This document shows positions 1 to 38,495 of a DNA stretch of 64,000 nt, one piece after another. The notes under the pieces are model-generated. The model was not told where the DNA came from. It was given only the letters and a program-made list of their open reading frames with translations, and ran no database searches. Both the position numbers and the translations under genes were made by a program. The stretch is from a virus, in IMG/VR virus record IMGVR_UViG_3300025120_000019. One strand, given 5' to 3'. Each line of letters begins with the position of its first letter. Position 1 is the stretch's first letter.

Positions 1-602
1 GTGGGTTAACCACAATGAATCATCTATACACAGATTATAAAAAATTACATAAGAAAAATTATAATTGTAATGATGATACTAAAATTATAACAATAATACG
101 TAATCCATTAGAAAGGGCAATATCTATTTTCAATTATAATATGTATAGGTTACCTTACACAGTTGACGGAATAGATAGACTAAACGAAAGAGAATCCGAA
201 CCAAGATATTATGAATTATTTAAAACTATAAGAAAAAAATATCCAGACCCACCAACCTCTTGGTATAATGATTCTATTGATGAAACAAAATTTTTATTTT
301 GGTTAAATGAAATATTACCAATTAGTATTGAAAATGATGGACATTCGATGAGACAAAATACATCATGGCAGTATCCAAATCAATTGCAGACAAGATCAAA
401 ATATTGGACTTTGGAAAATTTAAATAAACATTTGCTAAAAGTTTTTGGATACACATCTAATAAACAATATCAAAACTTTGGCAAATATAATAAAGAAAAA
501 ATGACAACCTTATTATCTTTACCAAATGTAAAAAAGAAATTAATTGAATATTACTACACCGATAATATAATTTATAACACCGCTAAACAAAAATATAAAT
601 AG
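1..602 (+). CDS. Sulfotransferase family protein (5'-truncated by window edge)
   Basis: IIRNPLERAISIFNY resembles the 3'-phosphate-binding motif (RxPxxRxxS). The frame is open back to position 3 (GLTT-M), resembling the end of the 5'-PSB loop, so the true start is probably upstream. Confidence 0.65.
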   Translation, partial: GLTTMNHLYTDYKKLHKKNYNCNDDTKIITIIRNPLERAISIFNYNMYRLPYTVDGIDRLNERESEPRYYELFKTIRKKYPDPPTSWYNDSIDETKFLFWLNEILPISIENDGHSMRQNTSWQYPNQLQTRSKYWTLENLNKHLLKVFGYTSNKQYQNFGKYNKEKMTTLLSLPNVKKKLIEYYYTDNIIYNTAKQKYK

Positions 603-851: not shown

Positions 852-1057
852 ATAACAAAGACGACGGTCCTAGTTAGATAGTGCAAGGAAGAGAGATAGC
901 AGGTCTCAAACTTGGCTAGTAGTTGTAGTGACAGCGTATGAGCGTAGAGATACGAAGATGCGACTTTAAACGTAACTGTTTAATACTAGGCTCTTGGTGA
1001 TTTAGCAGAACAGACTGCAAAGCCGGGTTGTTGGTATTCTGAAGTCCAACCTATCAA
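852..1057 (+). ncRNA. Candidate structured non-coding RNA (~200 nt), family unknown
   Basis: No ORF in the track; more GC-rich than flanks; many complementary segments incl. CGTA-GAGA-TACG GNRA hairpin; bounded by promoter and terminator. Confidence 0.6.
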
Positions 1058-1065
1058 CATTATAG

Positions 1066-1098
1066 AAAGGTCTATCATTTATTTGGTAGGCCTTTTTT
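1066..1098 (+). terminator. Rho-independent terminator
   Basis: AAAGGTCTATCA / TGGTAGGCCTTT 12-bp stem (with GU pairs) followed by T-run. Confidence 0.75.
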
Positions 1099-2960: not shown

Positions 2961-5900
2961 ATGGAATTTTTTAAGAGGCAGAGTTTACATAAAAGAACAG
3001 TAGGTGATACTAGTGTTACTTTAACTGCTGACGGTGAAGTATTAATTGCACCCGAAGGAGCAAAAACAAGAGTTACTGGTGACTTAATAGTTTCTGGTAA
3101 TGCAACAGGCCCAGCAACAACAGACATCTTATATGTTACTCAAGATGGTAGCGATACCAACGACGGTAAAAGCATGGGAAAAGATGGTGCTAAAGCAACA
3201 ATTAAAAGTGCCGCCGCTTCGGCTTTACCAGGCACTACTATTATTGTAGGACCGGGTGATTATTATGAATCAAATCCGATTACATTAGCAGACTTTGTTA
3301 CAATCAGAGGTGCAGGAGATTTAAGAAACACAAGAATTTTTCCAAGGAATAATACACAAACAATATTCTTTATGGGCAATGGGTGTTACTTACACGAACT
3401 TACATTTAGGGCTTTGAGATATCCAGGTTGGTGTGTTGAAATACGCCCAGGTGCTAGAGTAACTACATCACCTTATGTACAAAATTGCACTAACATGAAT
3501 GGACCTTGGTTAAATGATGGTACAGAATTTATTCCTTTTGAAACTGTACAAATTGCTGGAATAACGCCAGGTGCCAAACCATTAATGCTTGAAGATTACC
3601 CAGCTCTGTCAACTGACAAGCAAATTAACGATACCGGCGGCGGTGGAGGATTATACGTTGATGGTAATAGTTACGATCCAACATCATTAGTATTCAGCTT
3701 TGTTGCTGATGCATTTACACAAATTTCTCAAGGTGGTATTGGGTTTTGGATTGACAACTTTGGATATACACAGATTGTTAGTTGTTTCTCTGTATTTTGT
3801 TCTGTTGGATTTAAAGCTACAAATGGTGGCTACTTATCAATTTCAAACTCGGTTTCTGACTTTGGACTTAAAGGTATTGAGTCTGACGGATTTTTTCCAC
3901 AAGCATATACCACAGCTCGGGCTGAACAAAACTATTTTAGTACTGTTGCAAGTGTAACAATACAAACTGCTGGAGCAGGATATACCAGTGCACCAACAGT
4001 AGTAATCGAAGCACCTACTTTAGGAGGCGGAACACAAGCCACAGCAACTACTTCAATTGATGCTACTACTGGTAAACTTAGTGCTATTACAGTTCAAGAT
4101 GCTGGTAGTGGATATACAACTACACCATTAATTACTATAAGCGGTGGAGGAGCATCAGCACAAGCTACTGCCGTTGTAAATTTAGCAAAAAATATTACAA
4201 TAAGATTAAACAGTTTACGTGATAAACCGCAAACAGGTAGTATTGTTAAATTTGAAGCAGATCCAACTTATTACTACATTACTGGTAACACACAAATAAA
4301 TGCACCATTTATATATGATGAAACTGTATGTAGACGAGACCTTAAAAGAATAATTGATGCTGTCACTTCTGATATTGTACTAGGAACATCTTTTCAATCA
4401 CAAGCCGCAGGAACGAGTTATCTACGTAGTACATCTACTAAAGTGTTAAACGATCAAAAAGCACCAACAATATATGGCATTGAGCAAGCACGTGACGGTA
4501 TGAAAGCACAGACTACAAATCTTGCAATGGAAGAAAATATTGATTATTTGTTTAACATTATTACTAGCACTATTAGTGAAGGTGATAGTAGTATACAACC
4601 TGATAATAGTAACGATGTAGCGGCTACATTTAATGATTTACAAACTATTGACCCTGCTAAAATTGAAGCAAAAAATAATATTTTAGAAAATAGAGAATTT
4701 TTAGTTGAAGAACTTTCTGCATATATTAATGATCAATTTACTGAATTAAGCTATAACCAAGCTACATATACTGAAAATATGACTACACTTATAGACGGTA
4801 TAGAAATGTTTGCAACATTAGAAAGTAATCAGCAAATTGTTAGAGCGGCTGAAGAATTTGAGCTTAGAACAAGATTTAAACCAATGTTGTTGTCAAGTTT
4901 TAGATATTTGAGCGACAAGTTTGAAGCACTAGCAGATGTTCAAGCAAGTAGTATTGCACTTACAAATGTTAAAGAAGGCTTTAATCAATTTATGAATATT
5001 ATTGATGATGGTGATAGTTCAGCTATTGTGATAGTATTTCCAGAACACGCTGGTGTTGATAATAATAGGGCTGATGCAAAAGATCAAATTATTGCAAATA
5101 AAAACTTTTTGATAGCTGAATTTAAAACATTCTTATCAGCTGAAGTATCAGGGTTCGTATATGATGATGCAATATATACCACAGACTTAACAAACATTCT
5201 TGATGCTTGTATATTTGATGTTCTTTATGGCGGAAATAGTAGTACAGTACAAGAAGCAAAATATTACTTTGCTAACGGAGCAGGCGGGGTGGCTTTTTCT
5301 GCACTTGCTCCTGTAAACAAAGCGGCATTAGTTAATGCTTTTGCAAGATTAAGATTTGTAATACAAAGAGTTGTTAGAGGTTTAGCAGTAACACCAACTT
5401 CTGGAAACGGTGTAGCTCAAAACTTTGCAAGCAACAATGCCACACAAAGTGAAGCAGATTTTATAGATACTTTGATATTTAATATACAAGATATGATTGA
5501 TAATTTAACATTATCAAGATTACCAGCTACATTAACAAAACCTCTTTACACTGATGAACCTACATTACAAATAACAGCAGGGCAAAAAATTCTTCTAAAC
5601 AGAAATAACTTTATTACTGATGCAATAGCTTATAACTTAGCAAATAATCCTACTTTAACATACGATCAAGACAAATGTAGAAGAGACGTTGGGTACATTG
5701 TTGATGCTGTAAATAGAGATATCCTTTTAGGAACTAATACAAATAGTATTCAAGCAGGTCAAGCATATAAGAGAGCAAACACTGCATACCTAAATGTTGA
5801 GCAGAAGCCAGCAACAATATTAGGATTAAGAAAAGCAAAGGCATTAGGTGAAGCCGCAGTAATATCAAGCACTACAATCAAAGACGCTGTTACTGCAAGG

Positions 5901-8900
5901 TGGGAAGATGTTTTAAATATAATTGAAAATGATGAATTACCGTCAGAAGGTTTGTCATACCCTGATCCGGGGCCTGCTACAAACGAATTAATTTATGGTG
6001 TTGATCAGGTAATTGCAAACAAAGCATTTTTACAAGAAGAACTTGTTGCATATATTAATGCAAATAATTATGTATACGACAAAGATAAGTGTAAAAGAGA
6101 TACAGGACTAATAATAGATGCCGCCGCATATGATACATTGCTTGGCACTAATTATAATCAAAGAGTTGCAGGATTATCATATCAAAGAGCAAATAGTGCA
6201 TACTTGCAAAGCAATCAAAAAACACAAACTATTGCAGGAATAAACTTTGCAAAAAGTAAATCATCTGATGCAACAACTCATTCACCATCACAATCAACTG
6301 TGGAAGCGGCATTTGACGAAGTAATAGATATTATTAACAATGGAGCAACATCAACAGAACAAGCGGCAGATCCGTTAACATTTACAGATCCAAGTACAGC
6401 TACAACTGGTCAAAAAAATGCAAGACTACAATTACAAGCTAACAGAAATTTTATTGGAAAAGAAGCTGTAGCATATGTAAATAGTAACTATGTAAATTAT
6501 ACATATGATGTTACAAAATGTCAACGAGACACAGGCTTAATTATAGATGCTGTAGCAAGAGATGTTGCATTAGGCACCAACTACAGCTCAGTGACAGCCG
6601 GACTTGCATATTCAAGAGCAAGTGCATTAACTAATAAACAAGCACAAGGAATACAAACTCTTAATGCATTTCAATTTGTTAGAAAAGAAACATTAGAAAA
6701 AGGTTTAAGCGATGTTGGAGAAGCAAGGGCTTTAGCAGGTTACAACGAAGTCATAGATGTTTTCCAAAATGGAGTGCTTAGTACAGATGTTTCTGCAGAT
6801 GCTATAACATTTACAAATCCAACAGGAGCAAGTCAAGATTTAATTGATGCTAAAAATCAATTACAAGCAAACAGAGAATTTATTGCACAAGAAACATTAG
6901 CTTATGTAAATGCAAATAATCCAAAATATGATGTATCAACAGCAACTTACAATCAAACTACTGGAGATATGGTTCTTACAATAGGATCACATAGTTATAC
7001 AACAGCTGATTATATAAGATTAGGAAAAGAATCGTTAGCTTTTAGTTGTACATATGGACAAGGCAATCACACTTATGTTGGTGGTACAGCAAGCAACGCA
7101 GTTCAGTCAGGTGGTAACTATCTACATACATTCGTATCTGCTGTAACCAACGGAGTTACATCAAATGCAGGTAATTTACCAAACGCAGTTACAGGTGCAA
7201 CATATAATGCATCAACTGGTGAGATGATTATTACCTCTGCTTCACATCTGTTAACAACGTCAAACACACTTGCTATAGCCGATGATGCACTCTCTTTTAC
7301 CTGCACAATGGACGGCAACACAACAACTAAAACGTATCCAAGATCAACAGATCCTGCGTCTGGAGCAACTCTTGCTATTAGTGCAGTAACTACTAATACT
7401 ATTACTATAAATGTAGGCGCATCACCAATTGTAAATCATGATGTTACTAATGCAACATACAACTATGCTACTGGCATAATAGAAATGACTATTGGCAGTC
7501 ACTCACTGGCTGTAGGAACAAGTATTAAGATTGCTAATGATGCATTAACATTTACTTGTGATGCTGATGGTAATGCAACAAATCATACATATCCAAGATC
7601 AACTGATCCAGCAAGAGATACTGCATTGTCTATTACAGCCAAAACTGGAACTACAATATCAGTAAACGTAGGTATTATTTCAAGTTCAACAAGTTCAACT
7701 AAAAAATATCCACGTAACAATGCAGATCCTGCTTATAGTGCTAATTTAAGAATTACTGCGGTAGCTAGTAATACTGTTACAGTTAATGTTGGACCAAACA
7801 CAACTAATCCTACTGTACACACATTTGAATCTGCAACACCAGGTGCAGTTACAACTGGATATAATCAAGATAAGTGTTTAAGAGATGCAAGATATTTGGT
7901 TGATTCTTTATCACATGATATTCTATATGGAGGCAATACTGCAATTAGAACAGTTGCAAATAGTTACTTTGATGATGGCACTCCGCAACTTCCAAATTCA
8001 CAGCAAAAAACAGCTATTGTAAATGCATTCCAACATATTGCAACTAATATAATTGGTGATGTTGTACAAAATATAACAGTTGCACCAACAAGAACAAAAT
8101 TTACACCTGGAGCAGGTACAACGTATGATCCTACAACAGGCGTATTAAAATTAGCAGTCGGTTCACATAACTTACAACTAAGTGATTTGATTAAAATTGA
8201 ACCAAATGGGGTTACATTTAGTTGTACATATGGAGCAGGTGCTCATACTTATGTAGGCGGCACAGTATCAAATGCAATTACTATAACTGCAGGAAGTGTT
8301 CAAAAAGACGTTACAAATGCAACATATGACTATGCAACAGGTGTTATGGAATTAACTATAGGCTCACATAGCTTTACAACTAGTGATACTGTGACAATAG
8401 CTACAAATTCATTAACATTTACTTGTGATGCAGATGGAAACGCAACTAACCATACGTATCCAAGAGTAGGAGACCCTGCTCATAACACTGCTATAGCAAT
8501 ATCAGCAGTAACTGGTACTACTATTACTGTAAATGTCGGTGCTGTTGGATCATCTAGTTCAAATAAGTCTTATCCAAGAGCAACTGATCCAGCAATACAG
8601 CGATCATTTACACCTGCCACAGGAACTACATATAATCCAGCAACAGGAGAACTTGTTTTAGAAATTGGCTCGCATAGCTTAACAACAAATATGCAAGTTG
8701 TGATTGCACCTAATAGTATGGTGTTTACTTGTACTACAGATGAAACAAAACCTAAGCTTTATCCTAGACGAACTGACCCTGCATTTCAAAAAGGTTTAGA
8801 TATAACAGCCGTTACAGCAACAACAATTACAATGAATGTAGGAGTATCATCAGATACTAATCCACATACATTTATTTCTGCAAAAACAAATTCTGTAACA

Positions 8901-11900
8901 ACAGGTTTACTTCCAATTACTGCTTTAGATGCAACATCAATTACAGTTGATGTTGGAATTTCACTTACTGCGTTGCAAGCTCATACTTGGATAAGCTCAA
9001 TAGCAGATAGTGTATCAGTTGGAAACTTTACTGTGCAAGATACATCTAATGGCCCGGCTAGTAGTTCAGAAGTGTCTGCATTAGAAGGCGATATAACAAT
9101 AGTTACAAATGCTATAACTGCAAATAATAACTCAGGCGTACCAGCAGAAGTTACACCAAGTGTTACATGGGCATCACAATCTATCCAAGCAGATTATAAC
9201 ACTATTGTAGCAAATAAATCTGCATTACAAACAGCAACTACAGATTTTATAACTGAAAAATATCAAGGATATAATTTCAACGCAACAAAGTGTGAAAGAG
9301 ATACAAAATATATAATTGATGCTCTTTCATATGACTTATTGTACGGTGGTAATAGTGCTACTATAGATGTAGCTAAAAGTTATTGGGTAGGAACACAAAC
9401 ACAAGTAGCTGATCAAAAAGAAGAAACAGCAGTCACCATAGACTATGTTGGAAAAATATGTGACGAAATAATTAGAGATAAAGATGTTGATTATAAATGG
9501 CAAGGTGTAGTAAATCAAGATAAAACTAATGGTGCTGGTACAATTATAGAAGTAGGTAGGGTACAAACACTAGTACAAATTATGGAAGATGTAATTGAAA
9601 ACGGACTTGATAATCTTCCATCTACTACATATCCAGATTACCCACAATGGGTAGATACAGATGTTGTACAAGGTATCTCAAACTTGTTTAGTCAAAAAGA
9701 AACAATTAAAACTGAAACTGTAGATTATATTGATGCAACATATAATGGTTACTCATATGATCAAGCTAAGTGCAAGCAAGATACTGGATTCTTAATAGAT
9801 GCAATTACACATGATTCATTTTATGAATCTAATATTCAAACACTTATTGCAACTAGAGCATACTTTTTAGGATCTGCTCAGTATCTTCCATCTTATCAAG
9901 TAGCAAACACAGTAACAGCATACACACATTTACAAAGTGTAATAGACGATTGTATACAAGGTGTAGCAGTTACTAAATCTGCAGGAAATCCACTTAATCA
10001 AACACTAAGTGGTAATTATGGTAATTCTACTGTAGCAAATACTTTTACAGGCTTGATTAATATAACAAAAACAGCAATAAACAATCAAACACTTGTTGGT
10101 ACTCCAGCAGAAATAGAACCAAACTATAGCTGGATATCACAGGCAACAAGAAACGCTTGTTTAGAATTTTTTAGTCAAAGAGCTTACTATCAAACTGAAG
10201 TTATTAACTATCTGAATACAAAAGTTATTGGCTTTACTTATAATATTGATAAGTGTAAAAGAGATACTGGATATATTATTGATGCCGCTGTGTACGACAT
10301 GGTTTATGGTGGTGATAAGCAAACACAGAGAGCCGCAACTGCATATTATAGTGGTACAGTATTACAGGTGACTAACAATGCATATACTGACCAGTGTGAA
10401 ATAACTGCATATGCTAATTACTATCTTGCAGATATTATTGCTAAAGTTTCAATAAATGATACTGTAACAAAAAGTTTTGGCAACACATTTAATCAGATAC
10501 AAACTATACCAGACGGAAGTACCTTGATAGGAACAGCAACATATCCGGGTGCAACTTGTGAATTATTGATTAATAGATTAGCAGATTCGATTTATAATAA
10601 ATCAGTAAGTGGTTGGTTTGAAAGAGAACCTGACTTAACATTAGGTAACAGCATTTATTTGACTGAACGTAATACTATACTTGCCGCTGAACAAACTATT
10701 GTAGACAATGCTATTTCAGCATTAAACTTACAATATGGTGGTAGATTTGATGTTAACTTATTTCCAGGAATAATAAGTGTAACTACTGATAAGTTAGGTA
10801 GCTTGCATAATGTAAGTACAGTAAGTACTTCAGGTCACGCATTTGAATATGTAGGTGCAGGTATAACATATAATGCACTACCGTTCTTTGGAGGTACGGC
10901 TGTTCCTTCAACAGAAATTATACAAAGTAATCAAGGTAAAGTTTTTGCAGGTGGTACTGTTGACCAAATCGGTAACTTTAGAGTTGGTGACTTCTTTGGT
11001 GTAAATGCATTAACAGGTAGCATCACACTTAATGCTAATGAAATTGATTTATCAGGATTAACTAGTGTTGGACCTTTCATTAGAAACGGTATTCCAGTTG
11101 GTGTAGAATTAAAAGAGGTTAGTGATAATGAAGCACTTGTTTCAAGTTTAGGTACACAGGATTTAAATACTGCTCCTACTCAAAGAGCTGTTTCTAATTA
11201 TGTTGAAGCTAGATATCTAAATAAATTAACTGGTGGTACAGTTCAAGGAAACGTTACACTAAACGGAAACTTTGATGTAAATGGTAGTGTTATTTCAACT
11301 ACTTCAACTGGTGCTTTTGAATTATTAAACACAAACGCAACAACAGTTAACGCATTTGGACAAGCAACGGCTATAAATTTAGGCGCCGCAAATGGACTAG
11401 TAACTATTAATCCTGATATGACAGTTCAAGGCGCATTAACTGTAAATGGTAATTTGATATTTACAGGCGATGTTGCAATTACTATACCGGACGAAGAATT
11501 ACAAGCATATAGTATTACAGAAGGAACAGAAGATTACATTAGTATTAATACTAGATCAGGTGAAGAATCAGTAACCTTTGGTCAACAACCAAGTGTAATT
11601 ATTGCTAATACAACTGATAGTACAAGTAAAGATACAGGGTCGTTAATAGTAGATGGTGGAGCCGGTATTGAAAAGAATATTAATGTAGGCGGCAGTGCAG
11701 ACATTGATGATAACTTAACACTAGGTACAGACAGAACTGTAAACGCACATACTATTAAAGGTAAAATAGATATTGATATACCAGATTCTGGTATTAACAA
11801 TTTTAGAATACACGAAAACCTAAGTGAATACTTAGACATTGTAACAACAGATGGTTCAGAATCTATAAAACTTGGTACAACACCTAAACTTGTTGTACAA

Positions 11901-13313
11901 AATAACACAAATGCTACAAGTAGCACAACTGGTGCAGTACAAATTACAGGTGGGTTAAGTACACAACAAGATATCCATGCTGGTAATGATATAACAGCAG
12001 ATAGAGATTTAAAAGCTGATAGAGATGTTGAAGTAAATGGCACAAATATTATTACAGATGAAACAGGTGCTTTCAATGTATTCAATACAAATGCTACAAC
12101 AATAAATGCGTTTGGAGCCGCTACATCAGTTAACATAGGAGCGGCAACAGGTACATTAACTATAAACAACGAGGTTGTAATTGTAGATAGTGTTGCTGGT
12201 TTCCAAATTCCGGTTGGTACCACAGGACAGCGTCCAACAAATGTTACAGGTAGAATTAGATTTAACACTACTACAAATGCATTTGAAGGTTACGATGGTG
12301 TAGCGTGGAATAGCTTAGGTGGTGTAATTGATGTAGATCAAAATACATATATCTTAGCTGAAGATACACCTGGTGCTGATAACAATGAATTAGACTTTTA
12401 TACAGAAGGAACTAAACGGGCAACACTTTCTAACACCGAATTTAATATTGGTACAACAACTATTCTAAATGTACAAAATACTACTGAAAGTACAGATTAT
12501 CAAACCGGCGGATTAGTTGTATCAGGTGGTGCTGGAATAGCTAAAGATTTACACGTACAAGGATTTATAGGTGGTGATAATAGCGGAGTGCTTACACTAG
12601 CCAATGTTGCAAGTGATAAAATATTAATAAAAGCAGATACTATTGAATCTCCTGAATCGTTAAAAATTATTACTAATGCACCGGATAGTGCCGCCGACGA
12701 TGTAGTATATCCAGTTAGTTTAGCACATCATAGTGTTAGTGGATCTCCAACAGTTGGTAGTGGTACAGGACTTAAATTTGAATTAGAAACTTCAAATAAC
12801 AATTTTGAAGTAGGCGGACAAATTGAAGTTACAGCAATTGATATTACTGGTAACCAAGAAGATTTTGATATGGTATTCAAAACAATGGTTAACGGTACAG
12901 CTGGTATTGAAAAATTTAGAATAAGTGACACAACTAGTACATTTACAAATAATGTACAAGTAGATCAAAGCTTATTTGTTACAGGTGTGCTTGATGCTTC
13001 AAGCTTTAGAGGTAGTGTTGTTGCTGATGATAGTACTGAAATTATTGACGCTATTAATAATAAACTTACTGTTGTAAACGGAGCAATAGGAACCTTATCA
13101 TTAACAACTGATTTAGAAGTACAATATGGTGGTACTGGTAGAAGTAGCTTTGTTCCAAACGGTATTGTTTATGGAGATAATACAAGTCAATTGCAAGTTA
13201 CAGAAGCGGCAGGTAGTGCAGATATTAATACATCATTCCAAATGCTAACAGTAACAGATTCAGGCGATGATACTCCAATTTGGACAGACACAATAGACGG
13301 CGGTTCATTTTGA
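2961..13313 (+). CDS. Giant tail-fibre/virion protein (3450 aa): beta-helix-like domain, ~10 helical KCxRD repeats, 6 inserted beta modules, fibre shaft
   Basis: LYVTQDGSDTNDG..ATIKSA..VGPGDYYE pectin-lyase-like start; visible internal repeats; TG(A/S)LxVxGG fibre repeats; C-terminal IDGGSF. Confidence 0.8.
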   Translation: MEFFKRQSLHKRTVGDTSVTLTADGEVLIAPEGAKTRVTGDLIVSGNATGPATTDILYVTQDGSDTNDGKSMGKDGAKATIKSAAASALPGTTIIVGPGDYYESNPITLADFVTIRGAGDLRNTRIFPRNNTQTIFFMGNGCYLHELTFRALRYPGWCVEIRPGARVTTSPYVQNCTNMNGPWLNDGTEFIPFETVQIAGITPGAKPLMLEDYPALSTDKQINDTGGGGGLYVDGNSYDPTSLVFSFVADAFTQISQGGIGFWIDNFGYTQIVSCFSVFCSVGFKATNGGYLSISNSVSDFGLKGIESDGFFPQAYTTARAEQNYFSTVASVTIQTAGAGYTSAPTVVIEAPTLGGGTQATATTSIDATTGKLSAITVQDAGSGYTTTPLITISGGGASAQATAVVNLAKNITIRLNSLRDKPQTGSIVKFEADPTYYYITGNTQINAPFIYDETVCRRDLKRIIDAVTSDIVLGTSFQSQAAGTSYLRSTSTKVLNDQKAPTIYGIEQARDGMKAQTTNLAMEENIDYLFNIITSTISEGDSSIQPDNSNDVAATFNDLQTIDPAKIEAKNNILENREFLVEELSAYINDQFTELSYNQATYTENMTTLIDGIEMFATLESNQQIVRAAEEFELRTRFKPMLLSSFRYLSDKFEALADVQASSIALTNVKEGFNQFMNIIDDGDSSAIVIVFPEHAGVDNNRADAKDQIIANKNFLIAEFKTFLSAEVSGFVYDDAIYTTDLTNILDACIFDVLYGGNSSTVQEAKYYFANGAGGVAFSALAPVNKAALVNAFARLRFVIQRVVRGLAVTPTSGNGVAQNFASNNATQSEADFIDTLIFNIQDMIDNLTLSRLPATLTKPLYTDEPTLQITAGQKILLNRNNFITDAIAYNLANNPTLTYDQDKCRRDVGYIVDAVNRDILLGTNTNSIQAGQAYKRANTAYLNVEQKPATILGLRKAKALGEAAVISSTTIKDAVTARWEDVLNIIENDELPSEGLSYPDPGPATNELIYGVDQVIANKAFLQEELVAYINANNYVYDKDKCKRDTGLIIDAAAYDTLLGTNYNQRVAGLSYQRANSAYLQSNQKTQTIAGINFAKSKSSDATTHSPSQSTVEAAFDEVIDIINNGATSTEQAADPLTFTDPSTATTGQKNARLQLQANRNFIGKEAVAYVNSNYVNYTYDVTKCQRDTGLIIDAVARDVALGTNYSSVTAGLAYSRASALTNKQAQGIQTLNAFQFVRKETLEKGLSDVGEARALAGYNEVIDVFQNGVLSTDVSADAITFTNPTGASQDLIDAKNQLQANREFIAQETLAYVNANNPKYDVSTATYNQTTGDMVLTIGSHSYTTADYIRLGKESLAFSCTYGQGNHTYVGGTASNAVQSGGNYLHTFVSAVTNGVTSNAGNLPNAVTGATYNASTGEMIITSASHLLTTSNTLAIADDALSFTCTMDGNTTTKTYPRSTDPASGATLAISAVTTNTITINVGASPIVNHDVTNATYNYATGIIEMTIGSHSLAVGTSIKIANDALTFTCDADGNATNHTYPRSTDPARDTALSITAKTGTTISVNVGIISSSTSSTKKYPRNNADPAYSANLRITAVASNTVTVNVGPNTTNPTVHTFESATPGAVTTGYNQDKCLRDARYLVDSLSHDILYGGNTAIRTVANSYFDDGTPQLPNSQQKTAIVNAFQHIATNIIGDVVQNITVAPTRTKFTPGAGTTYDPTTGVLKLAVGSHNLQLSDLIKIEPNGVTFSCTYGAGAHTYVGGTVSNAITITAGSVQKDVTNATYDYATGVMELTIGSHSFTTSDTVTIATNSLTFTCDADGNATNHTYPRVGDPAHNTAIAISAVTGTTITVNVGAVGSSSSNKSYPRATDPAIQRSFTPATGTTYNPATGELVLEIGSHSLTTNMQVVIAPNSMVFTCTTDETKPKLYPRRTDPAFQKGLDITAVTATTITMNVGVSSDTNPHTFISAKTNSVTTGLLPITALDATSITVDVGISLTALQAHTWISSIADSVSVGNFTVQDTSNGPASSSEVSALEGDITIVTNAITANNNSGVPAEVTPSVTWASQSIQADYNTIVANKSALQTATTDFITEKYQGYNFNATKCERDTKYIIDALSYDLLYGGNSATIDVAKSYWVGTQTQVADQKEETAVTIDYVGKICDEIIRDKDVDYKWQGVVNQDKTNGAGTIIEVGRVQTLVQIMEDVIENGLDNLPSTTYPDYPQWVDTDVVQGISNLFSQKETIKTETVDYIDATYNGYSYDQAKCKQDTGFLIDAITHDSFYESNIQTLIATRAYFLGSAQYLPSYQVANTVTAYTHLQSVIDDCIQGVAVTKSAGNPLNQTLSGNYGNSTVANTFTGLINITKTAINNQTLVGTPAEIEPNYSWISQATRNACLEFFSQRAYYQTEVINYLNTKVIGFTYNIDKCKRDTGYIIDAAVYDMVYGGDKQTQRAATAYYSGTVLQVTNNAYTDQCEITAYANYYLADIIAKVSINDTVTKSFGNTFNQIQTIPDGSTLIGTATYPGATCELLINRLADSIYNKSVSGWFEREPDLTLGNSIYLTERNTILAAEQTIVDNAISALNLQYGGRFDVNLFPGIISVTTDKLGSLHNVSTVSTSGHAFEYVGAGITYNALPFFGGTAVPSTEIIQSNQGKVFAGGTVDQIGNFRVGDFFGVNALTGSITLNANEIDLSGLTSVGPFIRNGIPVGVELKEVSDNEALVSSLGTQDLNTAPTQRAVSNYVEARYLNKLTGGTVQGNVTLNGNFDVNGSVISTTSTGAFELLNTNATTVNAFGQATAINLGAANGLVTINPDMTVQGALTVNGNLIFTGDVAITIPDEELQAYSITEGTEDYISINTRSGEESVTFGQQPSVIIANTTDSTSKDTGSLIVDGGAGIEKNINVGGSADIDDNLTLGTDRTVNAHTIKGKIDIDIPDSGINNFRIHENLSEYLDIVTTDGSESIKLGTTPKLVVQNNTNATSSTTGAVQITGGLSTQQDIHAGNDITADRDLKADRDVEVNGTNIITDETGAFNVFNTNATTINAFGAATSVNIGAATGTLTINNEVVIVDSVAGFQIPVGTTGQRPTNVTGRIRFNTTTNAFEGYDGVAWNSLGGVIDVDQNTYILAEDTPGADNNELDFYTEGTKRATLSNTEFNIGTTTILNVQNTTESTDYQTGGLVVSGGAGIAKDLHVQGFIGGDNSGVLTLANVASDKILIKADTIESPESLKIITNAPDSAADDVVYPVSLAHHSVSGSPTVGSGTGLKFELETSNNNFEVGGQIEVTAIDITGNQEDFDMVFKTMVNGTAGIEKFRISDTTSTFTNNVQVDQSLFVTGVLDASSFRGSVVADDSTEIIDAINNKLTVVNGAIGTLSLTTDLEVQYGGTGRSSFVPNGIVYGDNTSQLQVTEAAGSADINTSFQMLTVTDSGDDTPIWTDTIDGGSF
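4310..10740 (+). repeat. Tandem ~140-160 aa helical repeats (Y-D/N-xx-K-C-x-R-D-xxx-I-I-D-A) in fibre 1
   Basis: Cys codons at 4329, 5676, 6090, 6519, 7875, 9291, 9771, 10254, plus two Cys-less copies. Confidence 0.85.
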
Positions 13314-13471: not shown

Positions 13472-13479
13472 GATAAATA
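13472..13479 (+). promoter_or_regulatory. T4-like late promoter (GATAAATA)
   Basis: TAAATA core upstream of second giant fibre gene. Confidence 0.6.
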
Positions 13480-13558
13480 CATTTAAGAGCGATTTCTATC
13501 GTAATTAAAATTATGGGCGTCTATATAGACTTGACTCGTACCTAAATAGGAGGCCGTT

Positions 13559-16500
13559 ATGGCAACAAAAATCAAGCATAAGCGTAGTGCGGTTGCTGGG
13601 AAGCAACCAAGTGTATCGCAGTTAGAATCAGGTGAATTAGCTATTAACACCGCAGACGGAAAAGTATACCTTTTGCGTGATGATAATACAGTTCAAGATA
13701 TAACAAAAAGAGTTTTTGAAGGAAATACAGAATTAAAAGTTGATGATTTAGGTGATAGTACGTCAGCCGCAATTACTGCAAGAGTAAATGCTGACGATAA
13801 AATGATAATCACTGATAACGGCATCAATATAAATGATGATGTACAGATTGAAAATGCCAACACACTTACACTTAAAGAATTAACAGGATCTGGTGCAGAC
13901 GGAGTAAGTCTAAAAGCACCTGATACGCTTGACGCTGGATACTCACTAACATTGCCTCCAAATAGTGGTACTATAGGTCAGCTTTTAAAAACAGATGCTA
14001 ATGGAAATTTAAGTTTTACTGATCCTGATATTTTTGGCGGTAATGTTGTCTACGTTTCTAATGAACAAGGTGATGATATAAATGACGGTCAAAGTGCTCC
14101 TGTAAAAACAATTAAACGTGCCTGTCAGATTGCTTCTGGGTTAGTTTATAATACAGACGGCACAACAAATAATAAACGTGTAAACGTTAAAGTTGCTGTT
14201 GGAGATTACACTGAACAAAATCCTATTATTGTTCCAGATAACACAGTTATTAAAGGTGACGGCTTACGTGGATGTATTTTACGTCCAGCAAATGCTAACG
14301 AAGATATGTTACGGGTGCGTAATGCTTGTTACTTTGGTGAAGTTACATTTAGAGACGGTGTAGACGAGAACGGAGTTCCATTAATTACTTTTGATTATGC
14401 TGTTGCTTTTGATGATCCGTTTGATGTAACTGTAGCTAGGGTTGGCTATACAAATATGCCAACTTCTAGACCCTTTATTACTACTTCACCATATATCCAA
14501 AACTGTTCCATACTTTCATTCTTAGGCGGTAACGGAGCAAAAATTGATGGTAGTAAAATTACATCTCCAAACGTTGGACTAGTACCTTCAGAGCAAGAAA
14601 ACCCAGTTGTAGGATCAATACCTGAACAAGGTAAGTCAATGGTTGCTAACGCCTTTACTATTCTGTCCTTCGGCGGTACAGCATGGCGATTAACCAACGA
14701 TGCTTATGCACAGATTGTGTCTTGTTTTGAAATCTTCCTACTAAACGGTGTTTATACACAGTCCGGCGGATATTGTTCTATTACTAACTCCGCTACAAAC
14801 TTTGGTTTGTATGCGTTGAGATCAAGTGGGTATTCACCTAAAGCTTTTGAATTTGATAGAGCATTTGTATCGTCAACAGGTGCTTTTGAAGGATTACAAA
14901 CTTTAAGTGTAGTTGGTATTAATCGTGCTTCACCAGTTGAAGAATTTGTATTAAGATTTAGAGACCCTGATTATAAAACTGCACGTGACTTGTTATTATT
15001 AGCTAAAAATACTATTGCAACTGATACCGTTTCATATATCAATACTCAAATTGCTGGTGCATCTGCAAGCATTTGGGCAGGATATGATTACGATCCACTG
15101 CAAGCAAAATGTGAAAGAGATACAAAATTATTAGTAGATGCTATTAGGTACGACGCGGCGTTTAACACAAATTATAGATCAATTGCATCTGTAATTACAT
15201 ACTTTAATGGACGTCAAACACCAGCAGTATTTGAATCACAAAGACTACAAGAAGTAGATGCTTTTACACAAGCAAAAGCATTTACTACAAATATAACACA
15301 AGATTCCACATATGATGCAAGAGTTAACGCATTATGGGATGAAGTTATTGATATTCTGGAACACTCTGGAACATATACTGCTGGCACAGGTACTTCATAT
15401 AATGCGGCAAGCGGTTCACTTATTTTAAACGTAGGTGCTCACGATTTAACTGTAGGAACCCAGATTGAAATTGCTCCTAACAGCTTATCATTCAGCTGTG
15501 ACTATGGACAAGGTGCTCATACTTATGTAGGTGGTACTGTAACAGATGCAATTACAATTACTTCAGGTAGTGTTAAAAGAGATGTAACTGATGCAACATA
15601 CAATCATGCAACAGGCGTAATGGAACTTACTATAGGTTCACATAGTTTTACAACTAGTGACACAGTAACAATAGAAACAAATTCTTTAACATTTACTTGT
15701 GCGGCTGATAGTAATGCAACAAACCATACCTATCCAAGAGTAGGAGATCCAGCCGACGGAGTTGCAATAGCTATTTCAGCAGTATCCGGTACTACAATAA
15801 CTGTTAATGTAGGAGCAGTTGGCTCGTCAAGTTCTACTAAAACATATCCAAGAGCAGTTAATGCATCTAACGGAGATCCAGATCCGGCATACAAAACTCC
15901 TGTTACAATTACCGCAGTAAATGCAACTACAGTTACAGTAAATATTGGTAACGCAGGATCAGCCGCTTCGTCAGCTCATACTTTTGAAAGTGCTACAGCT
16001 AATTCTATTACAGTTGCAGGTACTGGAACATTTTCAGATCCCACAGGCTATAATACAAGCTACCTTGCAGGCTACGGTAATGCAAGAGCACAATTAATTG
16101 CAAATAGAAAATTTATTGTTGCAGAAATTACAGCCTATGTTAATAATCAAATTGCCGCTGGAACTGCACCATTTTCAAAAACATTTACATATAGTAAAGA
16201 AAAATGTGAAGAAGATATTGGACATTATTTAGATGCATTTTTATATGATTTAACATATGGTGGTAACTTACAAACTATTGATGCCGCTAATCAAAATTTT
16301 ACTAATACAACACAAGCAGGTGGACTTGCTAATAATAGACTATCAGAATATGGCGAAAAAGCACAAACACTTGCCGCTTATGTTAGATTGAAAGAAGTAT
16401 TAGGTCAAATTGTTCAAGAACAAACAGTAACTAAAAGTGGTGGAGGAGTTCATACTTATGTAGGTGGTACTGTAACAAATGCGGTTACTATAACAGCACC

Positions 16501-19500
16501 AAATCAATCAACTGTTCAAAGAGATGTTACAAATGCAACATATGATCCTGATACAGGTCTAAGTGTTATTACTATAGGTTCACACAGTTTTACTACAAGC
16601 GATAAAGCAACAATAGTTACAAATTCATTATCATTTACTTGTGATACAGATGGTAATACTGTAACCAAAACATATCCAAGATCAACTGATCCAGCCGCTG
16701 GCACTGCTTTATCAATAGCATCAGTAACTGGCAATACTATTACTGTAAACATAGGTAAATCTGGAAATACTGTAACACAGGATGTATCAGGTACAGCAGG
16801 CGGATCAGATACCGCAGTTTTTGTACAAGCTAGAATGCAAGAAGTTATAGATTTTATCACAGCAGATGGAGCAACACAACCAACAAAAATTGATCCAGGC
16901 GTTAGCTGGGTTGCACAAGCGTATCAAGATGACTTAATCCGATTAAATGCAGAAGGTCAAAAAAATATTGCACAAAATGTATCTGGATATATCGAAACAC
17001 AAACTGAAGCCGCTAAATGGTATAATTTTGTATACGATTCAGCCAAGTGCTTAAGAGATACAAAATTAATTGTTGAGGCTGTAGCAAAAGATACCTGGGA
17101 TACTGGTAACAGATATTCAAGAAGTGCTGGACTTTCTTATTACACAAAAAATTTAGCAGACTCGTCACAAATTAGTATTAGTGGACAAGAGAGACAAACA
17201 ATTGATGCAATCAAAAAAGCAAGAGATTTAGCATTAACTTATATTACATCAGTATCTGCGGGAACACAAAACTTTGTCTCATCAAGATTTGATATTGTTA
17301 CTACAATTATTAATGATCCTGGTGATTTACCAGATGCACAAGATGTAAGTTCTGAAGGTGATACAACAAACAATTTTAAAACTAATGCTACTGAAAAATC
17401 ATTTAATGCGGCTACAGATGTAAACATAGGTGTTGATGTCATTACTATTACTGGACATGGATTTGCAAATTTACAAAAAGTAATTTATACTGCTAACGGC
17501 AATACACCATTAGGTGGACTAGACGAAGAACAAACATACTACATAAACATAATTAATGACGATGAATTTAAACTTACTTTTGATGAATCTGGAGATTTTC
17601 CAGTCGATATTAGAGTATTAAGCACAGGAAGTCATAAGTTCCTATCAGGAGTAATTGAATTTTTTGTACAAGAGATAACATCTTCGCACACAACATACCA
17701 GCAATTAGAACTAGAGTCTGGATCAGAAAGTTTTGTTTTTACTCCAGGTAAATCGATAGCTGGTACAACAGGTTCAAGTAATAACAGTGCTATTGTTTCT
17801 AGTTGGGAACCAGCAGAACGTAGACTTATTGTAAGTGTTGAACAAGTTGCAGTTGGAAGTAGTTTGTTACGTATTCAATTTGATGCTACAAGTGTTATCA
17901 CAGCAGACCACGCAGGAACTCCAAATGCAAGTATTGGGGTTAATGCCGTTCAAGCAAAAACAGGATTAGGTAGTGCTACATTTTCAGTAAAAGCTACAGA
18001 CGGAAGTAGTAGTTTAACAAATTTAGGCAATTTACCTGAAAGTCAAGTATGGTTCCATAGACCTAGTATTGTTAACTCATCTTCTCACACATGGGAATAT
18101 GCAGGTTCGGGTACAGACTATAACGCACTACCGCAAAACGGTGGTAACACCAAAGCAGAGTTTGAACAGTTTGAAGAACTACCAGGGCGTGTATACTCAT
18201 CAGGTACAAACGAACTTGGTGACTTTAAAGTTGGTGACTTTATTACAGCGTTTAACAGAACAGGTAACATTACATTTAGAAACAAAGTACAGGTGGACGA
18301 ACTTGATGCTTTGAGATTAAGTGTTTCCGATGTTATTATTGAAGAAATTTCAACAAGTGTTAACTTAGGTGATGACGAATTAGGTGGTGCAACTAATACT
18401 AGATTATCAACCCAGTTAGCTGTGAGATCCTTTATTAGTAATAGACTAGGTGGATTTGTTGATAAAACTGTGAGTACTGCGGCAGTACCGGGTGCTATTG
18501 TTCAACTTAATGTTAACGGACAATTAAACGCTGACTTGATTCCTGCTACACGACAGTTTACAAATACAAATACTTTTGGATATCTTTCAAGACTAGATCA
18601 AATTGACGATATACCGGCTGTAGATTTAAAGGCTGGCGATATTGGTACTGAAAACTATGAACAACAAGAATTAACATTAAGTGGAAATATTTCAGCGGCA
18701 GACGGAGCAACAATAACACAACCTACTTCTTTTGGTGCTACAGGCTATGCTAAAGGACTCTATGGTAATAGTGGTAACATTTTGGTTGCAAGTATTACTG
18801 GTGAATGGATTGCGGGTGATGATAGTACAGGGTCACAATGGGCAACAGGCGCTGGAAATAATTTATTTGTAGACGGTGTTGACTCCGGAGTATATCCAAC
18901 TGCACTTGGCGTAGTTAGTGAAATAGTTGATAACTTCTTTATAAAAACATCTAATAGTAGTCAGTTCTTAGTTTTAGATCCTACACCAAATTATACATTT
19001 ACAACCAATGCTATAGCAAATGCGGCTAGAACAAGTAATGTATCTACTATTACAACCAGTGGCGCTCATAATCTACAAATTGGAAATACTGTCAATGTTA
19101 CTATAGCTGATAATTCAACATTTGATGAAAATGCAGTAGTTATTAGTACACCTACTGCAACATCATTTACATATGCAAATGTTGATCCTGATAATGTTGG
19201 TAGTTTTAGTGTAACTAGCGGTACAGTAGGGACAGTTGTAAAAAGTGCTGATGGTGATGCACAAGGTAAAGTTACAGAAACAAGATTTGGTGTAGCAACT
19301 GGTGTTGACAATGCGGCAATTACTGGCGGTAGTTTATATACCCCAACTACCGGAAGTAAAATATACAAAAATATTCCAATGACAGCCGTAACAGGAAGTG
19401 GAACTGGTGCTAGGGCAAATATTACAGTCACAGCAGGACAGATAACAGATGTTGACCTAATAAGAGGTGGTACAGGATATGCGTCAGGCGACGAGCTTGG

Positions 19501-22500
19501 TGCAAGCCCTACAGACATTGGCGGCACAGGTAGTGGTTTTAAAATTGTTTGTACTGCTATTGAAAAACGTATATATGTTGATATTATTGGTGGTGTGTTA
19601 TTTGTTGCAAGTACATCAAGTGTTGACTTTGTTGAAGATAACACAGCTATTGCAAATAAGAAAACAATAAACTTAGATGATAACATTTCTAAAAACTTCT
19701 TAGCTGGTTCATCCGGTGGTAGTGGTAACGTAGACTATACTAATGATAGAATTACAATTACAAACCACGGATTTACAACTGGTGATCCTGTTTCATATGA
19801 CACACTTACAAATGTGCCAATTGGAGGGTTAACAAATACTCAAGTTGTTTATGTAAAAGTTATTGATGCAAATACAATTGAATTGTACGAAGGATTTTCG
19901 TTACTTAACAAAGTAGAGTTCTTAACAACTCCAGCAAATAATAATCATAACCTTACAAGAAAAACTGTTAACATAACTGATAATAGTATTATTGTTGAAG
20001 GACACGGATTTACAACAGGTAACGCACTTAGACTTGTTACCTTGTCAGACGGTAGCTCATCAAATGCATTATTTTCTGTAGGTGGAACAGCTATTGCATC
20101 AGGTTCTAGATTCTTTGTTGGTTCTGTAACAACAAACTCTTTTACATTGCATACGTTAAGATCAGATGCTTTAAGTAGTATTAATGATTTGGTTACTAAT
20201 GCACAAGACATTGACGGTATTGGTGTTGGTAGTGCTGAGGTAATACAACAAAATGTTCAAGTTATTTCGCAAGTAAACTCCTCTAGTAAAACAGTATCTA
20301 ATTGGAATTCACTTGCTGTTACAAATATTGACGCAAGTAACATTATTTCTGGTATAGTATCTCCAAGTAGATTGGGTGGAGCAGGTACTCCTAATAGTGA
20401 TACATTCTTAAGGGGTGATAGTGCATATTCTGTAGTTGTACAAAAATTGAAAAAAGCATCAACCACAGATAATCCAATAACTCTTACAGGTAGTAGCATT
20501 AGTCAAGAATTTTATGGAACAGTAAATGTAGGTGTAAACAATATTGATCTCAATCCTGGTGGAACTTTTAGTACACTTGGAACATCACGATTTTTACAAT
20601 CACAATTTGATGTTGCTTCAGATGCTAGTGGACAAGTTTTTCTTAAGGATGGTGTAATAGATGCTGGTACATTAGATTCACTAGATAGTGCATACTTCTT
20701 GAACCCAGCAAACTTAACATCAGCTGTTCCTGTAAATAGAGGCGGCACAAACTTAACCACATATGCTGTTGGAGATATAATTTATGCTTCAACAACAGGT
20801 ACATTGAATCCGTTAAATATTGGTAGGAAAGACTCTGTTTTAAAAGTATCAGCAACTGGTATACCAGAGTGGGGTACTGCACTTGATCTTGCAGAAGGAT
20901 TAGATGTTGGTGCCGCAAAACTTACTTCGTCAAGCACAGGTGCTGGACAAGTTTATAATGCAAATGTTTCAAGCTTAGAAATTGGTGGCGCCGCAACAAA
21001 TATTGCTTTTGGTAGTACAGCAGATACAAGGAATATATTTACACTACTTGCTAGTTACGAAGCAAACGCAAGCCAATCAGTGGTAGCTAACTTAACCAGT
21101 ATTACTCAAACTACAAATGGTGTTGCGGCAAATGGCGATAAAGAAATTCCATTAACATCAACGACAGGAATATTATCAGGTATGCTTATAACTGGTAGTG
21201 CATCTATTCCGGCAAACACAACAGTAACTGGTGTAACTGAAAACTTTATATATCTAAGTGCAGAAACAACAGGTACTGTAGCATCTGCACTAACATTAAC
21301 TTTTACTTATACACCATTTACATTAGGTATAAACGTTGGTGATACAATTAATGTTGCTTCAAGTACAATAGCAAATCTAGATGGGTCATGGCCTGTAACT
21401 GGTGCTACAGAAAATGCTACATCGTTTACTTTCCAAACAGATGCTAATGTTACAGCATCAAATGGTGATACCCCGGCTGGTGCATTAACTATTGATTCAA
21501 ACTTTGTAGTTAAAAATACAAAGTTTGTGTTAGGAAATGCAGAACACGCAACTACTCCAGAACCTGGAAGACTCTTAGGCACATCTGGTATTGGTACAGA
21601 TAAATCCGGAGGAAGTATTAGTATTGAGGGCGGTTTAGGTACAGGTAACGGAACAGGCGGAGACGTAATTATCAAAACAGGTGATGTTTCAACCACTGGT
21701 GATATTAAGCATACAAGTAAACAGCGTATGAAAATTGATACACAAGGTCATGTAGGAATCGGTGAACATGAGCCGGACACTACATTACATATTAAAGAAA
21801 CAGCTGGAACAGATACTACTTTTACAATGCAACGAGGTGCAAATACTGATAGAAACCAAATTGTATTTGAGCAAGCAGACGGAACGGCTGTTGGCCATAT
21901 TAAGCATGATGCTGGTGGTAATGATATTGTTATTGGTAATTATAACGGATCTGCTATAATAGATAGAATTAAAATTACAGGCACAAATGGTAATGTAGAA
22001 ATTACATCCGACCTAGAAGTAGACGGTGGAGATATTACTACGGATCAGGCTACTTTTAATCTAATTAACACAAATGCTACTAGCGTAAATGCATTTGGAG
22101 CGGCTACTACTATACAAATGGGTACAGGTGGCGATGGTGGTGGATCAACTACAATCGGACATGATTTAGTTGTACAAGGTGATCTAACAGTTAACGGAAG
22201 TCAAACTACTATTAACAGTACAACACTTACAGTTGATGATAAAAATATTGTTATTGCAAGCGGAGCCGCAGATAGTTCAGCGGCAAATGGTGCAGGTATT
22301 ACTATAGATGGTGCAAGTGCTACTTTAACCTGGGATCACGCTAATACTACTTGGGATTCAAATCAAGACTTTAATCTTGCTAGTGGAAAAGAATACTTTA
22401 TAAACGATGCTAGTGTATTAAATGCAACAACATTAGGATCAGCAGTAGTTAATTCCAGTCTACAAACATTAGGCACAATTACTACAGGTGTGTGGAATGG

Positions 22501-37722: not shown

Positions 37723-37783
37723 AGTAGGGTGTTAATGAATTAACATTTAAATATGATAAATACTTGCAAATAGGAGTACAAAT

Positions 37784-38465: not shown

Positions 38466-38495
38466 TACGTATATAAATCAAGTGATAAATACTAT

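Follow-up and report, generated by a model that had tools for sequence, protein, structure and literature searches.

A divergent manA-family RNA that probably forms its own transcription unit upstream of the virion genes of a PA5oct-like giant phage

The window analysed here, a 64,000-nucleotide stretch of viral DNA (IMG/VR record IMGVR_UViG_3300025120_000019), is AT-rich (34% G+C) and encodes a tail sheath, a tail tube and a large terminase that is 53% identical to the terminase of Pseudomonas phage PA5oct. Its source is an uncultured, PA5oct-like giant myovirus; related contigs measure 88-182 kb and are estimated to be 24-51% complete. Neither a blastn search of positions 600-1600 against cultured phages nor a tblastn search with a 530-aa ORF returned a match. 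At the left end of the window, an ORF at 15-602 (+), two genes upstream of the RNA considered here, shows a sub-threshold sulfotransferase match (PF03567, 19.4 bits; cut-off 22), and a 63-aa ORF ends at 810. The next gene (1216-1581, +) encodes a 121-aa protein (MGRPVNKRNFG...) with no Pfam or PHROG match, which is conserved at 31-87% identity in 71 viral contigs, where its gene opens the block of virion genes; its relatives of 141-149 aa begin MGRPINK. After small structural genes come two giant ORFs (2961-13313 and 13559-25348, +), whose products of 3450 and 3929 aa presumably belong to the fibres or the virion.

On the + strand, the end of the 63-aa ORF at 810 is followed by an A-rich tract and then by a sigma70-type promoter (818-845), which a first-pass annotation made from the letters of the window had already marked. 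Its -35 box TTGACT (818-823) is separated by 16 nt from the TATATT (840-845) of an extended -10 element (TGC-TATATT, 837-845; TG at 837-838), and a promoter scan matches it to the consensus at 10 of 12 positions. The combination TTGAC-N17-20-TATATT occurs only once in the 64-kb window, at this promoter. Among 20 distinct homologues of the first set (defined below), Pelagibacter phage Mosig included, all carry TTGAC-16/17-TATATT before the RNA fold, 18 have TG directly 5' of the -10 box, and the -10 box ends 5-15 nt before the RNA core; the promoter is also kept in 47 of 48 copies of the second set. Host RNA polymerase would initiate at this extended -10 promoter.

The same annotation had placed an intrinsic terminator at 1066-1098 (+), and this element is real as well: a 14-bp hairpin (AAAGGUCUAUC / GGUAGGCCUUU) followed by a U run (T6 in the DNA) is present in the minimum-energy structure. 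A simple terminator scanner missed it, probably owing to a stem that extends into the A/T flanks. A hairpin and T run are in place in 18 of the 20 first-set homologues, with stem sequences that are unrelated between clades; a position that is kept as the stem drifts is the pattern to be expected of a working intrinsic terminator. A strict terminator rule is passed by 35 of 48 second-set copies. Such a terminator would stop transcription and leave the RNA as a separate transcription unit, with a small gene of early type before it and the late virion-gene block of the PA5oct-like giant myovirus after it. With its start placed from the -10 box and its end from the terminator, the predicted transcript spans about 245 nt (852-1098, +); its ends and abundance, like the efficiency of the terminator, are read from the sequence.

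Within these 245 nt the only ORFs are of 20-34 aa, none of them with a strand or frame that is kept among homologues, and ARAGORN found no tRNA or tmRNA in the whole window. Both results agree with the first-pass annotation, which had described a candidate structured RNA free of ORFs and unlike either tRNA or tmRNA.

Homologues were collected by two routes. Use of the downstream 121-aa protein as a query led to 71 related IMG/VR loci, in 24 of which nhmmer located the RNA upstream of the homologue of that gene. An alignment of 14 distinct copies made with MAFFT only, from which RNAalifold derived a consensus, already contains compensatory changes in 32 of 57 pairs. The architecture of the Rfam family manA was transferred onto an 11-sequence alignment to give our own model, R1, and a search of all loci with R1 recovered 46 full or truncated copies. 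The first set is the model-based alignment of 28 distinct rows; it is fitted to the model, and the analysis was therefore repeated on an independent sample. This second set was drawn through the exact 5' signature GACGGT-N5-TTAGATAGTGCAAGG, which occurs in at least 119 viral (IMG/VR) contigs. The RNA is present in 80 of 80 signature loci retrieved, corresponding to 66 distinct rows.

Compared with shuffled sequence, the energy of the minimum-energy fold is just modestly unusual (z = -2.43), so that the case rests on comparative evidence. The first set has 93.8% paired cells and changes on both sides in 52 of 60 pairs, against 36-43% paired cells in control structures slid by 1-3 columns; the second set has 94.1% paired cells, with compensatory changes in 40 of 60 pairs. 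Two independent homologue sets support the predicted nine-helix manA fold, and the covariation that the first-pass annotation had proposed as a check on its reading is found in both. Since G-U makes up 13.8% of paired cells in the homologue alignment and A-C 1.4%, the + strand is the RNA strand. The modest fold energy and the short ORFs are what would be expected if the stretch coded for a small protein or were a spacer in which hairpins arose by chance. That explanation has a negligible probability in the face of the compensatory pairs of the first set, the strand-specific G-U bias, the switching of the longest ORFs between strands and frames, and the conservation of the sequence across the contigs that carry the signature.

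The fold opens with a 5' hairpin, P1 (857-872, +), which bears a conserved GACG loop (863-866). This copy forms only the inner 3-4 pairs of P1; across the family 79% of the cells of this helix (helix 1) are paired and 6 of 6 pairs are compensatory. An rRNA-type boxA leader was considered for the 5' end and rejected: AUAACAAAG becomes AUAAGCUAG or AUAAGUUAG in homologues and is part of P1. The closing stem P2 (877-1055, +; GAUAG 877-881 / CUAUC 1051-1055; helix 2, 100% of cells paired, 5 of 5 pairs compensatory) encloses a five-way junction, which would bear P3, P4 with its own four-way junction, P8 and P9. P3 (884-914, +) is a hairpin with outer CAAG/CUUG and inner GAGA/UCUC pairs (helices 3-4; 100% and 96% of cells paired). 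P4 (916-989, +; CUAGUA 916-921 / UACUAG 984-989) closes the four-way junction with P5 (922-932, +; loop GUAGU), P6 (934-963, +; GAGA tetraloop of the GNRA type at 947-950) and P7 (966-983, +; loop CGUAACUG), and in this region 89-99% of the cells of helices 5-9 are paired; L6 reads GAGA in 74 of 76 relatives. P8 (992-1028, +) consists of an outer part (993-998/1022-1027) and an inner part (GCAG 1005-1008 / CUGC 1015-1018) capped by the loop L8, AACAGA. The last hairpin, P9 (1030-1050, +; GUUGG/CCAAC; helix 13, 100% of cells paired), carries the 11-nt loop L9, UAUUCUGAAGU.

Most of the pairings proposed in the first-pass annotation recur in this fold: CAAG 884/CTTG 911 enclosing GAGA/TCTC, CGTAT/ATGCG and the hairpin CGTA-GAGA-TACG, CTTGGT 993/GCCGGG 1022 enclosing GCAG/CTGC, and GTTGG 1030/CCAAC 1046. 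Two others, CCTAGT 869-874/ACTAGG 985-990 and ACAG 931-934/CTGT 976-979, find no support (65% of cells paired and 3 of 10 pairs compensatory for the two helices together): the true partner of 984-989 is CUAGUA 916-921, and 976-979 lie in the loop of another hairpin. The pairing of GATAG 877 with CTATC 1051 holds; the pseudoknot suggested for it does not, because with the correct P4 pairing it becomes nested as the closing stem P2.

A scan of the window against Rfam at gathering thresholds gave zero matches. The manA model (RF01745) nevertheless aligns to 857-1060 over all 192 of its positions, with 31.0 bits against a cut-off of 55.2 (E-value 3.4e-6 in a 601-nt search and 3.6e-4 over the whole window), and it is the sole Rfam match at E <= 0.01 in the whole-window search. 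Orthologues that precede the same gene at the corresponding position exceed 55.2 bits (L053 89.3, L069 66.5, L014 63.7, L001 62.1, L007 59, L028 56.3 and L008 55.4) or fall below it (L066 48.9, L025 46.6, L004 33.9); the copy in the cultured Pelagibacter phage Mosig EXVC030M reaches 64 bits. By nhmmer the window RNA aligns to L007 and L008, which both pass the Rfam cut-off, with E-values of about 1e-15. Our model R1 gives 183 bits to the window copy and 56-82 bits to L053, L069, L001, L028 and phage Mosig; it finds no second copy in the window. Loop and junction nucleotides also align to the manA consensus (GACG, AGUG after P2, GUAGU, GAGA, GUAACU and GGUAU...AGUCC). By Rfam score the window copy falls short of 55.2 bits, an operational cut-off that orthologues pass, and by homology, full architecture, loop nucleotides and complementary loops it belongs to manA. 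Judged from these alignments, it is a divergent member within a continuous manA lineage.

The score under the gathering threshold would also fit a new RNA class, for instance a ribozyme, decoy or scaffold that resembles manA by chance. This is highly improbable given the full-length model match with its common loop and junction sequences, an unbroken series of alignable orthologues that climbs to 55-89 bits, and the lack of any Rfam match to ribozyme families. The novelty implied by the first-pass annotation is thus not borne out: the kind of RNA is not new, and the locus adds a sub-threshold member to a known family. An Rfam match, which that annotation had said would remove the novelty and for which it had listed manA among the motifs to check, does exist, under the cut-off for this copy and over it for orthologues. 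The discovery is modest in that manA has been in Rfam since 2010. Those copies of this clade that were scored against the Rfam model range from 31 to 59 bits, several of them below 55.2 bits, so that routine annotation misses part of the clade.

Some relatives hold a further Rfam RNA close by. In L028 (1897-1943, 51.6 bits) and L053 (2298-2345, 49.7 bits) a glnA RNA (glutamine riboswitch, RF01739; cut-off 35) precedes the manA RNA by about 200-300 nt, so that in these phages a single intergenic zone brings together several Rfam RNA motifs; no glnA RNA was found in the window.

In Rfam and in Weinberg et al. (2010; PMC2864571), manA is classed as a candidate riboswitch with a probable cis-regulatory role. 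Applied to the window, this would mean that the manA fold responds to a ligand or protein and thereby sets how often transcription passes the terminator at 1066-1098 and enters the virion-gene block. The terminator directly after the fold and the frequent association with the 121-aa/MGRPxNK gene family are in keeping with such a role. The terminator and the manA fold do not overlap, however, and both co-form in the minimum-energy structure. No conserved alternative pairing or anti-terminator between them is visible among the homologues, as the terminator stem drifts freely beside a fixed P2. The mutually exclusive pairing of fold and terminator that would mark a riboswitch did not appear in minimum-energy (non-kinetic) folding, a weak test. 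A candidate anti-terminator built on the CUAUC repeat (1051-1055 / 1071-1075) was discarded as peculiar to this copy, since the terminator stems of homologues differ.

The region behind the terminator bears on the same question. Ahead of the next gene lies, as a neighbouring element, CATAAATAC (1127-1135, +), which is similar to the T4 late promoter; in 19 of 20 homologues (G/C)ATAAATA follows the core at a distance of 46-102 nt. We infer its likeness to the T4 late-promoter box, TATAAATA. In the window, (G/C)ATAAATAC occurs at 1127-1135, 13472-13480, 37755-37763 and 38484-38492, always on the + strand and immediately before an ORF start: those of the 121-aa gene, the 3929-aa gene, the gene after the sheath gene and the tail-tube gene, two of which are virion genes by family match. 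Four sites against eight expected is not above chance; their placement, not their count, is suggestive. Next comes a leader resembling the freshwater-2 motif (RF02980; 1151-1218, +), which extends over the ATG of the 121-aa gene and its ribosome-binding site and scores 37.7 bits against a cut-off of 49.9; orthologous leaders in L014 and L025 lie above that cut-off, with 51 and 53 bits. In the orthologous leaders the first hairpin co-varies (CCUC/GAGG versus CCGC/GCGG). This leader may control translation of the first gene in the downstream virion-gene block; the 3929-aa gene has no second such leader ahead of it.

The next gene appears to have both a promoter motif and a leader of its own, and the RNA does not occupy the position of its 5' UTR, as the terminator and the late-type motif intervene before the ATG at 1216. 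Downstream genes, moreover, vary among relatives: the 121-aa/MGRPxNK family is usual and not constant, and at some loci the RNA lies about 2.9 kb from that gene. In phage Mosig the RNA abuts a rubrerythrin gene, with the core ending 23 nt before it, and no terminator was found after the manA core; this arrangement fits a leader role there, elsewhere in the family. The seed rows of Weinberg et al. (2010; PMC2864571) contain TTGACA promoters, annotated terminators after the fold and flanking tRNA genes. The presence of tRNA genes beside some manA seed sequences likewise argues against a dedicated leader, and no manA ligand has been reported. A riboswitch or cis-acting leader is accordingly an unlikely explanation for the window copy. 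Because promoter and terminator are kept and the next gene has a separate motif and leader, the RNA reads as a gene of its own and not as a switch, and the sequence evidence speaks for a stand-alone RNA more than for a riboswitch.

In some close relatives a further conserved module, rich in hairpins, lies 100-200 nt past the manA core and ahead of the terminator. Two types of module occur, one in L100, L152, L123, L149 and L116 and the other in L156, L107, L147 and L089, which suggests modular growth of the RNA gene.

A structured RNA gene at this locus is real and well supported, with homology to manA, fold, RNA strand and the conservation of promoter and terminator all visible among the homologues. 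In all likelihood 852-1098 is a divergent manA-family non-coding RNA of about 245 nt, transcribed as its own unit and folded into nine helices. The first-pass annotation was right to see a complex folded phage RNA made as a separate unit, as the covariation and the kept promoter and terminator attest. Of the functions that it proposed, ribozyme and decoy find no support; scaffold is the closest guess, in view of the reported self-assembly of manA RNAs and of the loops that co-vary.

In the window copy, L5 (GUAGU, with UAGU) is complementary to ACUG in L7, and CAGA in L8 to UCUG in L9; L9 positions 4-7 co-vary with L8. Among 11 representative sequences, duplexes between a sequence's own L8 and L9 have a mean of -3.65 kcal/mol, compared with -1.99 +/- 0.40 after permutation, a value that 0 of 5000 permutations reach; for L5-L7 the mean of own duplexes is reached in 10 of 5000. 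The control pair L8-L7 gives no signal (1834/5000), and L5-L9 a weak one (76/5000), probably through the UGGUA that L5 and L8 have in common in the distant clade. The close clade holds at least eight complementary L8/L9 solutions (AGGAU/AUCCU, CAGA/UCUG, GAGA/UCUC, CGAGA/UCUCG, GUGG/UCAC, UGAU/AUCA, AUGA/UCAU and GCGA/UCGC), and the Rfam manA consensus has CUGU/ACAG and UGGU/ACCA at the same loop places. Co-variation and the many complementary solutions indicate that the L5/L7 and L8/L9 pairings are under selection, although loop covariation cannot separate pairing between molecules from pairing within one.

An unreviewed 2026 preprint (bioRxiv 10.64898/2026.07.01.735769) reports cryo-EM structures of manA RNAs assembled, on a pentamer basis, into octamers, decamers and an icosahedral cage of 60 subunits. 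The contacts are kissing loops L5-L7' and L8-L9' or, in another manA subgroup, an L3-L8' interface together with an L6 GNRA-receptor contact; this assembly was seen in vitro only, at high RNA and Mg2+ concentrations, with other members of the family. Helices are numbered here from 5' to 3', and their mapping onto the numbers of the preprint is by order only. On that order, L5/L7 and L8/L9 of the window RNA would correspond to the interfaces L5-L7' and L8-L9', a mapping that is supported by L6 being a GNRA loop in both. The RNA would then act in trans, its copies joined into a self-assembling particle by L5/L7 and L8/L9 contacts, and would not switch the next gene; by analogy with the preprint, the odds of this are roughly even. 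The varied compensatory L8/L9 solutions suggest that the loop pairing seen in vitro is under selection in nature, which supports, without proving, a physiological assembly of manA RNAs.

A more specific proposal, that in infected cells the early-promoted RNA builds closed pentamer-based particles, up to a 60-mer cage, and that the particle and not the monomer is the functional unit, is tentative and rather doubtful. If it were true, the particle might, for example, sequester or concentrate a host or phage factor, and giant phages of several lineages would carry a gene for an RNA-only nano-compartment.

Among known systems, the manA motif itself is the closest. It shares with the window RNA the nine-helix architecture, the loops GACG (L1), GURGU (L5), GNRA (L6), UAAC (L7) and GGUA...AGUCC (L9), and the complementarity of L5/L7 and L8/L9, which is already present in the Rfam consensus; both occur in phages of marine or aquatic origin, with a TTGAC promoter directly upstream and, in the Weinberg seed rows, a terminator after the fold. 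The window RNA differs from a typical manA in its score (31 bits, where 55.2 is the cut-off), in the degenerate outer pairs of P1, in a shortened P3, in a P2 that reads GAUAG and not GGGAG, and in the L8/L9 pair CAGA/UCUG. Its setting differs too: typical manA RNAs lie near metabolic genes in T4-like cyanophages, whereas this one precedes the virion-gene block of a PA5oct-like giant myovirus. Its own terminator and the second promoter before the next gene are at odds with the 'cis-regulatory' label of manA, and we argue that, with promoter, terminator and second promoter all kept, the label is wrong for these copies.

Like the window RNA, transcription-terminating riboswitches precede a gene and combine a structured domain with an intrinsic terminator behind it. 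The window RNA departs from them in that fold and terminator neither overlap nor engage in a conserved alternative pairing, the downstream gene has a separate promoter, and there is no known ligand. GOLLD and ROOL are large phage-borne non-coding RNAs of unassigned function, often near tRNA genes, and have been reported to form RNA-only multimeric cages. Rfam searches found no sequence or model match to either in the window, and there is no sign of common descent. GOLLD and ROOL are several times longer than the window RNA, and the working hypothesis for all three is of the same kind.
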